A stretch of DNA of 64,000 bases from Eledone cirrhosa (GCA_964016885.1 OZ024741.1:370388001-370452000), one strand, 5' to 3'; positions 19,479-36,362 are shown, counted from the stretch's first letter. Translations and numbers: made by a program. Notes: generated from the letters alone by a model not told the origin.

Positions 19479-19664
19479 GAGATTCTACAGGACTAGAACT
19501 GTTTCATTCTTTAGAAATCATCAGGAATCTGAGATTCCTGATGATTTCTAAAGAATGAAACAGTTCTAGTCCTGTAGAATCTCATCTATATTAAAACTTT
19601 TATACTCTGCAATGTATTGAGTACCTTACTTACTGTGGTTACCTCCGATTCAACCCGGAATAAC
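19479..19664 (+). mobile_element. PLE insertion, family A: ~105-bp perfect palindrome with HHR-like core plus unpaired 3' tail
   Basis: gagattctacagg...cctgtagaatctc palindrome (19479-19583) containing CTGATGA-tttctaaagaat-GAAAcagttc; tail to cccggaataac; (TA)n on both sides. Confidence 0.8.
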
Positions 19665-20689
19665 GTATATATATATATATATATATATGTGTGTGTGTGT
19701 GTATGTGTTTGTGTGTGTGTGTGTGTGTGTGTGTGCGTGTGTGTCTGTGTGTGTGTGTGTGTATAATAGTCAATAATATTAGGCACCATTAGAGACGGCA
19801 AAAATTGACAAAAGATTTTCTTTGTCTCCAGGGGTACTTTCCATGTTATTTTATGGTCATAAGCCGCAACAGAATAACCGCCACCACCACTCTCCCCCCC
19901 CCCCCCTCCCACCACCATCATCATCAACTTCAACATCGTTTAGTTTGTATATATCTGTATATATATATAATACGTATTTTTATATATAAATATATATCTT
20001 TTTTTTATGTATGTATATATGTACGTATGTATGAATAAATGTATGTATGCGTGTATGTATTTATAAATGAATGAATATATGTATGTATGTATGTAGGAAT
20101 GTATACATGTATGTATATAGGAATGTATATATCTATGTATGTAGGTAGGAATGTATGTATGTATATGTGTATGTATGTACGTATATACATATTTATGTAT
20201 ATATGTATGTATGTATTTATCTGTGTGTATGTAGGAATGTATATATGTATATATGCATGTATGTATATATGTATGTATATATGTATATATGTATGTATAT
20301 ATGTATGTATATATGTATATATGTATGTATATATGTATGTATATATGTATATATGCATGTATATATGTATGTATATATGTATATATGTATGTATATATGT
20401 ATGTATATATGTATATATGTATATATGTATGTATATATGTATGTATATATGTATATATGTATATATGTATGTATACATAAACACTGGAAAATCTAGAAAC
20501 CCAAGCAAGATAAAGGCAAGACCATTATTTAATCGCTTTTATAAGTTGATTTGTTTTTTGTAAGGTTTTAGTTTCTTGAAGATTTGTTGGCACCACACCA
20601 ACACTCGCACCATCAGCCGTACTAACCCCAGCCCTTGTACCACAACGAATCCTAGCATGCTACCCTACCATATTCATCCCTACCACTGC

Positions 20690-21975
20690 CACTCCCACCA
20701 CCTCCACCATAAACTTCACCACCACCACCATAAACTTCGCCACTATAACCACCACAACCTCTCCCAATACCACTATAACCACCACCACCACAACCTCCCC
20801 CACTACCACTATAACCACCACTATAACCACCACAACCTCCCCCAATGCCACTATAACCACCACCACCACAACCTCCCCCAATACCACTATAACCAACACC
20901 ACCACCACCACCACAACCTCCCCCACTACAACTATAACCACCACAACCTCCCCGAATGCCACTATAACCACCACCACCACCACAACCTCCCCCAATACCA
21001 CTATAACCACCACCACCACAACCTCCCCCACTACCACTATAACCATCACTATAACCACCACAACCTCCCCGAATGCCACTATAACCACCACCACCACCAC
21101 AACCTCCCCCAATACCACTATAACCACCACCACCACCACCACCACAACCTCCCCCACTACAACTATAACCACCACCACCACCACAACCTCCCCCACTACC
21201 ACTATAACCACCACTATAAACACTACAACCGCCCCAATACCACTATAACCACCACCACCACCACAACCTCCCCCAATACAACTATAACCACAACCTCCCC
21301 CAATACCACTATAACCACCACCACCACCACAACCTCCCCCAATACCACTATAACCACCACAACCTCCTCCAATACCACTATAACCACCACCACCACCACA
21401 ACCTCCCCCAATACCACTATAACCACCACATCCTCCCCCAATACCACTATAACCACCACCACCACCACAACCTCCTCCAATACCACTATAACCACCACCA
21501 CCACCACAACCTCCCCCACTACCACTATAACCACCACGAGACTCCCCACCACAGCCACTAACACAACCACCACTAAAGCCAACATGATTATTATGCCCCA
21601 CCCCGACAACCACAGCCACAACCATTACCACTAGAAACAACTCCAATATCCCTAACATCTCCTCCTCCTCCTCCTCCTCCTCCTCCTCCTCCTCCTCCAC
21701 CACCACCACCACCACCACCAAAACCAGCACCACCACCACCACCACTAAGGCCAGCACCGTCGCCACCATCACCACCACTACCACCACCTAAACCAGCACC
21801 AGCACCACCACCACCACCAAATCCAGCACCACTACCACCACCACCACCACCAGCACCACCACCAAAACCAGTACCGCCACCACCACCACCACCACCAAAA
21901 CCAGCACCGCCACCACCACCACCACGACCACCAGCACCAGCACCAGCACCACCACCACCACCACCGCTCCACAAC
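20690..21975. repeat. (CAC)n-based minisatellite and microsatellites
   Basis: Repeated cacaacctcccccaataccactataaccacc units, then (CCT)n and (CCA)n. Confidence 0.9.
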
Positions 21976-22184
21976 TTGTCACCACCAGACAAACTATCAC
22001 ACTTCAGATATATCTCCCCCCTCTTGTACGTTTACCCTACTATCATGTTAAACTTACTATCAGTTTCAGTCCTTCCTCTGTTTATACACATATACATACA
22101 CCCATACATACACATAGATACATACACGCATACATATACATACATACATACATACATACACACACGCATACATACATACTATTA

Positions 22185-22757
22185 CATGGTGGCTGCCAAC
22201 TCGTTTTCGAGTACGGCCACTACTTTATATCCATGTAGGAGAACCCCTACCGAAGCGCTGAACGAGTGTGACTTTTTAGTCCAGCCAGCGACTTGAAAAC
22301 TCTGGTACAAACACTACACTTGTGACAATTACTGACACATAGTGCTGGGCCCATGGTACCATGTGACGACAAGTGCAGAGAGATCTCCAGATATAAAGCA
22401 ATGCCTGTGCCGTGAAGCTTTTATAGTGAGCAAAGGCACTGCACAAAGCCAGTCCCACTCTCTTAACCAAGATGATATTTACCAAAAAGAAGAACAAGTC
22501 AACATCATTGGATACCATCAGGGTTGCAGGTGTTATATCAGAGTTTTCCTTCTCCTAGAATTCTGCCTTGACAAAGGCTAAGGGGTCATCTCTCCCGGTG
22601 ATTTTGGATGGCCATTGACTCTTAAGAGTTCCTTTGACCTTTGACAGGTTTTGTTTTTAGTCCTGTAGGATATCCAAAGTCACCCTCCTCACCAAGAAAC
22701 CTTGGTGGGGTTGTCAGTTTAGTCGCCAACGACCCGACCATGAGACAGGTTGTACTG
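22185..22757 (-). mobile_element. RTE-clade LINE 5' UTR fragment
   Basis: Minus strand ggtcgggtcgttggcgactaaactgacaacccc and ctaggagaaggaaaactctg, typical of RTE 5' regions; 22439-22597 recurs essentially identically at 25272-25430. Confidence 0.6.
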
Positions 22758-22802
22758 TGATACACGTTACCATACTATTACATATATACGTACATACATA
22801 CA

Positions 22803-34059: not shown

Positions 34060-34399
34060 ATATATATATATATATATATATATATACATATATATACGTG
34101 TGTCTGTGTGTATATGTGTGTGTGCGCGCGCGCGTGTCTGTGTGTGTGATACATAAATGAAAGAATAAGCTGAAGTAATTAATTTATCCATTATTATACG
34201 ATCCATTCAGAGAGTAAAATTATGTATGTGTTGGCTAATCGATGGCAGTTATGCGATGCAATACCATTAGCTTCGAAAACGCCCCAAAACTCTGCTCTCT
34301 CTCCTCATCATAATATAATAAAGAAAGGAGTGCGCGACTGCGTCCAGGTTATATAATTTTACCCCGTTTGTAAAATAAGTTAGATTAATTTGAATAAAT

Positions 34400-34520
34400 A
34401 ATTGTTTCTACTTTTGGCACAAGGCCAGCAATTACCAGTGTATTACTGGTACTTTATTTTATCGACCCCATAAGGATGAAAGGCAAAGTTAACCTCGGCG
34501 GGATTTGAACTCAGAACTTA
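34400..34520 (-). mobile_element. Main tRNA-derived SINE (Meta-like central domain), truncated
   Basis: Reverse complement of ctgagttcaaatcccgccgaggttaactttgcctttcatcct...gtcgataaaataaagtaccagt...gccttgtgccaaaagtagaaac. Confidence 0.85.
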
Positions 34521-35510
34521 ATTTGAATAAATAATAAATGAATATTACATCATTTATGTACTAAATTTCGTAACTCTTGTGTAAATATATTTTATTGCTT
34601 ATTTAAAGATTCACTTCTTTAAGATTTTCAAATGTCAACTCTTCCGGTTATATTATAACACTTATAATAACATCGCATATATTTCCGTCGCTAATTTTCT
34701 CCTAATGCAGTTTATATATAATATCGTCTTTTTAAAATGTATCATGGATTACTTTACTGATTACAGAAGAGAGTGTAACACAGTCTCTCTTCAATTTCTG
34801 TAGATATTGTTAATTACGATTTTATTTGACATACCATATCTAGATGCATGTATGTTTACGTATAATAACAATATGCTCACTTCACATACTAGCAGAAAAC
34901 CACCCGAAGATTGGTTTTTCTGCTAGTATATATAATATTGTTAGACTTTATACGTTAAGAGGGCAATGATACGAATAAAAACCCATGCCCCAGATTATTT
35001 CCCCTTTGGGTTTATTATTAATCAGGTAATTAATCTATTAATTAGTTTGTTAAGTAACTCGATAGGTTTTTAATTGTTCTAGCTCTTTTGTTACAGTTTA
35101 TGCATCTTCTCAACGATTATTTTGGTCCTGTGTCTCGTCCTCACTTCGATTTTGTTCCAGTTACTGCATCTTGTCTTCATACACGACAGAATGACAAGAT
35201 GGATTGCACAATGCCATGTATATATATCAAGTAAAGCAACGGAGTAAAGGAATCGCGTTTATCCCTGTAATTTAATGAGCTCAAAAGAAAAAATCCCTGG
35301 CCACTTCAAAATACAATATAGAGAGGGAAAAAACACAGGAAATTTTGTTTTCAATTACAGGGAGTATAAGATCACTAGCGTGAAAAACATATAAACTACG
35401 AAAGGTTTGGGAAATACATTATAATTAAAAGGATAAATTAAAATGAAATAAGCCCACCCACCCCCATATATATATATATATATATATATATATATATATA
35501 TATATATATA

Positions 35511-35710
35511 TGGAGCTGTTATTTTATCTAAAGACATTTTTTCAAATTCCACCCTGCCCGTCCCATCAATCTATCTTATTTCTCATCCTTTCTTCTGACG
35601 AAGGACTAGCGTCCGTAACGATAAGACCGTCTTCCTGCTATTTCAAGTTTAAACTAATATATTCCTTCCATATACTGTACCGATTGTGTTGTTATTTCTG
35701 TTTACCTTTT
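35511..35710 (+). mobile_element. PLE pLTR fragment, family F, mutated HHR
   Basis: tctt CTGACGA aggactagcgtcc gtaacg at 35591-35620 (GAAA mutated to GTAA). Confidence 0.7.
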
Positions 35711-36162
35711 ACATACATACATATATATATATATATATATATATATATAGAGAGAGAGAGAGAGAGAGAGAGAGAGAGAGAGATATGCAGGGAATAGCTT
35801 TTCTTTCAAACATTCTTTTTTCAAAACACGCCTATGCTCCAGTCGGATCACTCTTATTAAGGTCTCTTCGTATTTTCTTATTAGTTTTTTTATGCTTTGT
35901 TTGGAACAGTAGCCTTTCTAACTCACTGTGTGTATTAAAGTCTCGAAGTCTTCATCGTTGTATCTGGCAGTTTGAATATCCTGATTCGAGGATGGAGTCA
36001 CAAAGGTCACAAATCATTAATAAACATATGGATTTAGTAACGCTACTGTTCCAAACTAACTATAACGAAATAATAAAGAAATACGAAACATTCTTGATAA
36101 AAGCGTTGGCACTAGTACAGTCGTGTTTTATGTGTTACCCCCCTCCCCACATACACACATAT

Positions 36163-36362
36163 ATATATATTTAATATAGAAATGGCTTCTACTGGACTAG
36201 AACTGTTTCATTCCGGAGAAATCATCAGGGCTTCCTGATGACTTCTCTCGAATGAAACAATTCTAGTCCTGTAGAAGCCATTTCTATATTAAATATATAT
36301 ACTCTGCTATGTATTGAGTACCTTACTTACTGTGGATACCCCCGATTGAACCCGGGATAAAC
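36163..36362 (+). mobile_element. PLE insertion, family A: palindrome plus tail
   Basis: Homologous to 19479-19664; arms 36163-36300, CTGATGA...GAAA core; a third, minus-strand tail copy lies at 41492-41582. Confidence 0.8.

Follow-up and report, generated by a model that had tools for sequence, protein, structure and literature searches.

The 64-kb stretch of the Eledone cirrhosa genome analysed here (GCA_964016885.1, OZ024741.1:370388001-370452000; hereafter the window, with positions counted from its first letter) belongs to a 3.0-Gb, microsatellite-rich animal assembly and carries six palindromic insertions in (TA)n tracts, representing five families, A to E, of Penelope-like elements (PLEs). 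The original prediction had placed these insertions (family A twice, the others once each) and an ACTC..GAGTRC motif beside each of them; all six insertions and all six motifs, with inner lengths of 11-42 nt, were confirmed at their positions, and the inverted arm does end close before the ACTC, at a measured distance of -1 to 12 nt. The elements are 5'-truncated insertions of Hydra-clade PLEs, which at full length carry two tandem copies of a bulged hairpin, H1 and H2, between a hammerhead and the open reading frame (ORF), and nearly all of their ends fall just 5' of one or the other hairpin.

Palindromic insertions in the window

Copy 1 of family A (19479..19665, +), a Hydra-clade PLE linked to a Hydra ORF start through longer copies, shows the whole layout of inverted arm, sense arm, and tail within (TA)n. 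Its predicted hammerhead core (CTGATGA...GAAA, a pattern match) lies at 19538..19560 (+), with a mirror copy at 19524-19502 (-), and its H1 at 19604..19624 (+) comprises ACTC, a 3-bp upper helix, a TT bulge, GAGT, and AC (E 0.021 under the covariance model described below, from which all such E values here are taken). Copy 2 (36163..36362, +) has its predicted core, again a pattern match, at 36235..36257 (+) and H1 at 36301..36321 (+; E 0.008). The family D palindrome (29825..30191, +), with pattern matches to the hammerhead core at 30054..30094 (+) and in mirror at 29923-29883 (-) and H1 at 30160..30181 (+; E 0.008), has a shortened tail, which in this copy breaks off at a TATA tract inside the element, some 35-43 nt past H1 and short of the usual H2 site; elsewhere the family is linked to H2 and a Hydra ORF. 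Family E (palindrome and tail, 32044..32242, -) is truncated before the hammerhead core, and H2 and the ORF occur in longer copies; its H1 (32099..32125, -), with a 4-bp upper helix and a TA bulge, was unreported by the covariance model. The H1 of family B (32786..32837, +; palindrome and tail 32464..32880, +) has a 34-nt loop and is too long for that model.

Family C (palindrome and tail 33867..34056, -) holds the top covariance-model match in the window, an H1 with a 4-bp upper helix and a TT bulge at 33913..33938 (-; E 9e-5). This family is young, with identical tails and an intact 784-codon frame at another locus, L462. The hammerhead core there (3490-3600) belongs to the U3-A8 type and has both a long helix II and a helix III that is extended, and the family's palindrome centres cluster at the 3' strand of helix II. 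To the six insertions we add a third family A copy at 41492..41583 (-), a tail with H1 (41553-41533; E 4e-4) lacking an inverted arm, and a B-type tail on its own at 63260..63363 (+), with H1 at 63267-63318.

Tails of these families measure 60-105 nt. First-look candidates in the assembly number at least 5056 for the whole A element and, for tails, at least 1262 in A, 1739 in B, 770 in C, and 452 in E; a similarity search with the AT-rich family D tail gave no matches, and D copies were then recovered by pattern search. Different PLE families nest inside each other's (TA)n flanks (L042, L046, L074, L135, and others), forming clusters like that at 29.8-36.4 kb of the window. The one-sided tail, the variable centres, and the linkage to reverse transcriptase (RT) ORFs led us to reject an identity as miniature inverted-repeat transposable elements (MITEs) or other DNA transposons.

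Membership in the Hydra clade

A PLE origin had been suggested for these families, and their features match the Hydra clade as defined by Craig et al. 2021 (PMC8557442). In place of GxKF/Y, families A to E have an N-terminal RWK-type motif, RRxRW[RK]; DKG is replaced by DKT in B, C, D, and E, with YKT in a decayed A copy. Tandem units of C, D, and E contain a CxCX5C linker, seen also at L222, together with a C-terminal GIY-YIG domain with CxxC and CxH, and CCHH is absent from their C-termini as judged by eye. Hammerhead cores are predicted in A, D, and E, with a U3-A8 type core, a variant known from the literature, in C, and B is atypical, the GAAAC/palindromic helix III half being present and the CUGANGA box non-canonical; none has an Rfam match at gathering score. 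Insertion in (TA)n and tandem organisation were both observed, the tandem units of 3.5-3.9 kb exceeding the "generally <3 kb" of the clade definition (PMC8557442). Pfam recognised RVT_1 in three of eight ORFs and no family in the other five. Longer copies of every window family continue from the tail into an ORF with a start of the type S.K[ND]IP...RRxRW, and the hairpin motif lay 100-310 nt upstream in 5/5 of the first such starts examined.

The five families are not unrelated, as had been thought. Their ORFs are 34-57% identical over 256-427 columns, and in an RT tree they form, with two more families of this host genome, one well-supported branch (100/99) apart from 18 homologues from other sources (foreign homologues); the tree was midpoint-rooted and built from host families and foreign homologues only, without Neptune, Nematis, or Poseidon references. 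Because the ORFs share one branch and yet are so divergent, the motif is common by descent and has been kept while the surrounding sequence turned over. A search of viral contigs found no relative. Hydra-clade PLEs also occur in contigs filed as bacterial genomes, both metagenome-assembled genomes (MAGs) and a symbiont assembly (L329-L343), which is likely host DNA contamination.

Two hairpins and the ends of insertions

H2 sits past the end of the tail, some 35-120 nt ahead of the ORF start, and the window copies lack it. Since the family B tail stops just before H2, an H2 was predicted beyond the tail end in the other families. In B itself it is present in 2/2 run-through copies, the tail continuing into H2 and a Hydra ORF at L067 and L077. 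Searches of the assembly with H2-region patterns gave 466 matches for C, 273 for E, and 177 for D, and none with reversed controls. Among 20 loci for each family, the hairpin was completed, with at least one upper pair required, at 19 in C, 15 in E, and 17 in D, and an ORF start stood behind the H2 region at 14, 16, and 13, respectively; the search patterns included RCTC, so only the completed hairpin and the downstream ORF count as tests, and four pairs among the family C loci overlap. Three full tandem units, of C, D, and E, were matched at the H1 and H2 positions only.

Mapping the arm endpoints of genome copies against the motif, as the original prediction had proposed, placed 422/430 de-duplicated (TA)n-flanked ends within 25-nt zones just 5' of H1 or H2 and 8/430 elsewhere; for an unselected sample, the figure was 82 of 87. 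Modal junctions lie 3-10 nt upstream of the hairpin at all ten sites, most junctions share 2-7 nt of TA homology with the target, and the foreign (TA)n junctions that were detected all fall at -7 to -4 from the hairpin (8/8). Ends hardly ever fall at the longer TA tracts present elsewhere in the elements. Family D has 15 TA tracts, two of them used; in family C both sites have only TAT, while an ATATAT tract at -126 goes unused; and sites with just 2-3 nt of homology (C and E-H2) are used almost exclusively. Of the proposal that a conserved cis element sets the boundary, one part stands, in that a conserved element fixes the insertion ends; the template-boundary role does not, as discussed below.

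The motif's position, not its frequency, carries the significance. The strict motif count in the window alone is not significant (nine matches against 4.3 expected, with 7/100 shuffles as high). A motif-blind screen of an even-step sample (100 stretches of 10 kb, 1 Mb, plus the window) gave 225 palindromes, and the strict motif stood beside the arm end in 30 of the 115 palindromes in which the outer arm end meets (TA)n, compared with 0/115 on the opposite side and 0/176 for orientations without (TA)n. A relaxed descriptor of the motif matched 44/115 in this first sample and 0.66% of random windows, a circular result in that the descriptor was derived from the same sample, with one match probably false; once fixed and applied to a fresh 200 kb, it matched 6/23 as against 0/23 and 2/140 in the comparisons.

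Palindromes were further analysed arm by arm in a set of 172, from which 30 family A hits selected on the whole element were excluded. An H1-ended arm is joined to an H2-ended arm in 149 of them (32/36 in the unselected sample), and four are homotypic. Among the 149, the H1 arm reaches further 5' in 73 and equally far in 60; where the difference exceeds 30 nt, the H1 arm is the longer in 44 and the tail arm in six. The tail arm ends before passing the H1 site in 24/149, and the inverted arm of L081 exceeds its tail arm by about 425 nt. An inverted arm that holds sequence lacking from the tail arm is not a fold-back of the tail complementary DNA (cDNA) and was copied separately from RNA. The outer end of the inverted arm thus behaves as a start, not a stop. 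H1-ended pieces without a partner arm also occur (a set that was not de-duplicated). The arms of one palindrome are closer to each other than to the average other copy in 104/116 cases, and this likeness, with the scarcity of homotypic pairs, would agree with both hairpins being engaged on a single RNA. The common palindrome centres lie at about -70 (A), -65 (C), and -176 (E) from H1. For family A, an origin of these centres in hammerhead cleavage was rejected, as only 2/37 tail arms start close to the predicted site (-32), most of them starting at -64 to -72.

A conserved bulged hairpin

The shared unit is a bulged stem-loop, RCTC-[variable upper helix]-UH-GAGY-RC, in which a 2-nt 3' bulge begins with U and the final RC is usual. 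A hairpin had been recognised correctly in the ACTC/GAGTRC stem, but it takes a bulged, two-helix form and reads mostly GCTC/GAGC outside H1 of the five families. We examined its conservation in a foreign set of 93 loci from metagenome and MAG contigs, chosen from an alignment of 40 proteins; the loci are not all independent and yield 55 distinct hairpins. The fixed descriptor matches 40/50 upstream regions (5' untranslated regions, UTRs) of foreign Hydra elements, with 0/50 antisense and 1.3 in shuffles; 27/55 downstream regions, with seven antisense and 2.4 in shuffles; and the interior of foreign ORFs four times in 142 kb. The motif persists in elements that are about 35-40% identical in protein. 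Two or more hairpins are present in 29/50 foreign upstream regions; H1 mostly follows the hammerhead core by 72-103 nt, and H2 follows H1 by 57-83 nt. Of the six new Hydra sequences published in PMC8557442 and inspected by eye, three show the complete motif (Hydra-2_Amil, Hydra-2_Ajap, and, twice, Hydra-1_Ajap, from coral and sea cucumber), two show part of it, and in one it was not seen. The Hydra row of our clade control gave an uninformative 0/2, with two weak matches only, and for two further PLE types of the host the descriptor matched 0/17 and 0/6 3' ends.

In the upper helix, pairing is conserved where sequence is not. At 111 of 131 GAGYRC sites in foreign elements an RCTC occurs within 64 nt (a sequence-only test). 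With a 2-nt 3' bulge, the first upper pair forms in 53/55 distinct foreign hairpins (C-G in 34, T-A in 17), whereas bulges of 0, 1, or 3 nt give 3/55, 5/55, and 8/55 and a further register 19/52. Watson-Crick first pairs number 52 vs 28 after permutation, with a maximum of 41 in 5000 permutations, and the second and third upper pairs also exceed all 5000. In a ten-sequence alignment of foreign hairpins, 98.6% of cells are paired, a level matched by 0/500 shuffles; the four basal pairs are invariant within it, and basal covariation is seen between groups only: at pair 1, G-C alternates with A-U, and at pair 2, C-G with U-A (GTTC/GAAC families). The covariance-model check that had been proposed succeeded in part: a model built from the ten foreign hairpins alone ranks five window hairpins at the top (C, the three of A, and D; E 9e-5 to 0.02) and misses those of B and E. 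Rfam 15 gave no matches at gathering score in eight loci, and in the window all of the 150 matches listed (of 302) were below gathering score and of low-complexity microRNA type only.

Proposed mechanism and alternatives

These comparisons make it likely that each hairpin docks the element's RT-endonuclease and positions the start of reverse transcription on the UA-rich bases 3-10 nt 5' of the hairpin. The endonuclease would nick both strands of a (TA)n tract, and a protein dimer, probably on one RNA, would prime at the H2 site on one strand and at the H1 site on its partner, assisted by 2-7 nt of UA:TA pairing. Both cDNAs would then extend toward the RNA 5' end and be joined there, the H2-primed cDNA giving the tail-bearing arm and the H1-primed cDNA the inverted arm, with the tail corresponding to the H1-to-H2 interval. 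As each hairpin lies 3' of the start that it specifies and is not copied by that RT, H2 would be lost from the usual insertion, and copying at full length would call for a tandem transcript in which the next unit supplies the hairpins; the tandem units of 3.5-3.9 kb are in line with this. On an ordinary transcript, an RT bound to the 5' UTR hairpins would copy just the short 5' leader, which would explain thousands of palindromes of 150-400 bp, and the clustering of palindrome centres suggests that short palindromes may copy the leader only. We hold at about even odds a broader proposition, in which paired identical RNA handles, shared by distantly related marine invertebrates, would bring an RT dimer onto a single transcript and have both strands of a (TA)n cut primed at two programmed internal sites. 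If it is true, this two-handle rule would account for the tail of PLEs, for their inverted 5' copy and dependence on tandem copies, and for how retrozyme-like partners are mobilised, and the 20-nt hairpin would be a portable signal with which telomerase's closest relatives carry out internally initiated, double-strand target-primed insertion.

Several observations weigh against hairpin-directed initiation. The original suggestion that the UA run anneals to (TA)n agrees with the homology at most junctions and not with 30/71 family A tail junctions, which have no microhomology, and our junction classification left many anchor matches as "other" (9-121 per site). No full H2 was found in family A, which has a 4-bp GCAC/GTGC hairpin lacking the bulge 10 nt past the tail end, and its tail ends are sharp despite this reduced H2. 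The hairpin is weak on its own: in free-energy folding, the basal stem was in the minimum-energy fold of one of six window fragments (z -1.2 to +0.4), stem probability ranges from 0.04 to 0.98 across host families, and the mean for foreign hairpins is 0.64 as RNA vs 0.59 as DNA. The tail arm is the longer in 16/149 palindromes, and a palindrome's own arm is the best match in just 29/116. Finally, other PLE clades form a palindrome and tail without the motif, including at least the first of the two other types tested here, which does so in (TA)n, so the motif is not generally required.

The hairpin might act in DNA instead, the GIY-YIG endonuclease recognising it in single-stranded cDNA or extruded DNA and cutting the adjacent TA tract, thereby resolving a longer intermediate. 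Craig et al. ascribe the tail to endonuclease-mediated resolution (PMC8557442), and the D. virilis endonuclease is reported to require the tail for recognition (PMC11167929). The 3' strand and the next bases also form a pseudo-palindrome, GAGYRCTC, with 29/55 foreign hairpins continuing as ACTC, and the folding values just given do not separate RNA from DNA. We regard this account as unlikely: the 5' extents of the two arms are independent, conservation is strand-specific (40/50 vs 0/50), G.U-type pairs outnumber A.C pairs six to one on the sense strand (a weak signal), and in the one PLE tested the tail ends are RT start sites (PMC11167929).

It is quite improbable that the hairpins serve ribonucleoprotein assembly or translational control, with the ends set solely by UA:TA microhomology that happens to adjoin them. 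The 12 nt 5' of foreign hairpins are indeed A/U-rich, most junctions do have homology, and the sharp A tail ends beside a reduced H2 would be expected. Such an account is at odds with the near absence of ends at longer TA tracts (8/430), with the almost exclusive use of the C and E-H2 sites despite their 2-3 nt of homology, and with a spacing to the hairpin that is near constant among clade members.

The original prediction took H1 for a boundary like a telomerase template-boundary element; on such a reading, a tail-primed cDNA would fold back and be copied up to the hairpin, where synthesis would cease. The arms are more alike than average copies and similar in length in 60/149 palindromes, as fold-back would have it. 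The model is nevertheless largely refuted, and we consider it very unlikely. Fold-back cannot exceed its template, and the inverted arm is the longer in 73/149, by up to about 425 nt; the partnerless H1-ended pieces (not de-duplicated) speak against it too. An identical H2 motif stands beyond the tail end, where there is nothing to stop, and the hairpin lies 3' of the arm end, where the RT making the arm never copies it and the one making the tail passes through it. The unremarkable motif count in the window and the single branch of families might have suggested that the motif is due to chance or is a relic passively retained from one recent ancestor. This reading is refuted by the held-out tests (40/50 vs 0/50; 6/23 vs 0/23 and 2/140), by RTs only 34-57% identical with an upper helix that has turned over in sequence yet stays paired, and by the motif's presence in distant foreign elements and in published coral and sea-cucumber sequences, and its probability is negligible.

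Other repeats in the window and assembly

Hammerhead-bearing repeats occur at L220 (5067-6114) and L230 (6274-7005), there as tandem units of about 470-490 bp without a long ORF, and also at L164 (144-760) and L189 (6400-6654). Their covariant hairpins read GTTC..TT GAAC at H1 and ACTC or TCTC..TA GAGA at H2, with arm and tail ends before them, and they are candidate retrozyme-like partners of Hydra PLEs. Another frequent family, with a hammerhead present, has a tail that begins ACTC GTGT-loop-ACAC without GAG (L171, 4600-4737; L223, L239, L221, L453, and L461), and a further hammerhead-bearing repeat, of the CTGATGAAGGACTAGCGTCCGAAAC type, is dispersed beside (TA)n (window 19300-19430, 35510-35715, 47340-47490, and 27440-27540).

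A second PLE type, P0002 (window 46005-46961; L210, L242, L214, L184, L227, and L239), has DKSG and a CX4CX2C linker, features that we take to be Neptune-like, and forms a (TA)n palindrome and tail without the hairpin. Two P0002 subfamilies share an AC-rich tail word, TTCRACACACG, right after the arm end, which recalls the AC-rich stem-loop of the green anole element PAc discussed below. A 1141-codon RT-bearing frame of the long interspersed element (LINE) type lies at 50076-53498 (-), with fragments at 54364-57786; its start is nearly identical to frames at L173 and L228, so the element was recently active. An abundant repeat resembling short interspersed elements (window 10218-10342, 34400-34520, 41700-42560, 47530-47830, and 63040-63260) is sometimes palindromic and sometimes sits in a Hydra element, as at L148, where the TA-rich H1 priming site has received it. 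At 3356-4874 there is a 57-bp tandem array of about 23 well-kept copies (96% matches), with one frame open for 357 codons.

Comparison with known systems

Neither the clade, nor the tail and the inverted copy, nor internal initiation is new. With the Hydra clade of Craig et al. (PMC8557442) the elements share the RW motif, DKT, the CxCX5C linker, the C-terminal GIY-YIG domain, and the hammerhead, as well as (TA)n targeting, an inverted 5'-truncated copy, and an optional tail, which at 60-105 nt is longer here than the 30-40 nt given there. The main text of that paper describes the hammerhead only, with no hairpin, stem-loop, or bulge, and calls open how PLE tails and inverted copies form and how the RT chooses an internal start. 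That question has been partly answered for one element, PAc, a Poseidon PLE of the green anole (Frangieh et al. 2024, PMC11167929). Its RT begins at two internal sites bracketing the tail, both strands of an AT-rich target are cut and extended, and a dimer is predicted; RNA is needed out to +172 for starts at +111-118, that is, about 55 nt 3' of the start. Our elements resemble PAc in the AT-rich target and, on the reading preferred here, in the two internal starts around the tail, the extension of both strands, the need for RNA 3' of the start, and the proposed dimer. They differ in that PAc starts inside an AC-rich stem-loop in the ORF, without target homology, and the available text defines no conserved recognition element (PMC11167929), whereas the starts here lie 3-10 nt outside a repeated, clade-wide 5' UTR hairpin, usually with short TA homology. 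No description of a repeated covarying RNA element marking both PLE ends was found in the full-text literature, with paywalled papers and Repbase notes outside this scope, or in Rfam, in agreement with the original impression of novelty.

The 3' stem-loop of a LINE lies 5' of the priming point and is copied into the insertion. The hairpin seems to work most like that of the stringent LINEs, with the geometry reversed: in ZfL2/UnaL2 (PMC4176376), a small stem-loop adjoining the priming repeat has likewise been proposed as the protein's handle on the RNA. Unlike it, the PLE hairpin is 3' of the start, is left behind, and is present twice; it is not copied into every insertion, and tail-ended insertions lack H2 just as inverted arms lack H1. 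Another parallel is offered by metazoan non-LTR retrozymes (bioRxiv 10.64898/2026.07.22.740005), non-autonomous repeats that bear a hammerhead and whose mobilisation is attributed to PLEs, as the 470-490 bp tandem units of this genome carry covariant H1 and H2; the accessible part of that preprint names no cis signal, and the window elements are palindromic fragments, not tandem retrozymes. For annotators, the motif is a marker of Hydra-clade ends and of non-autonomous partners that might otherwise be mistaken for MITEs or microRNA hairpins.

A telomerase template-boundary element lies 5' of the template and halts synthesis. The hairpin described here is unlike it: it stands 3' of the ends, tail-primed copies read through it, arm lengths are independent, and there is no reiterative copying. 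What the elements do share with telomerase RNA (PMC7658794) is an RT of the sister group, an internal template, an uncopied flanking structure, and possibly a short primer alignment. A 20-nt, twice-repeated, covarying motif that predicts start sites to within a few bases is directly testable, the young family C with its intact frame being available for this, and it is relevant to the question of how the use of a defined internal template, as in telomerase, arose in an RT.

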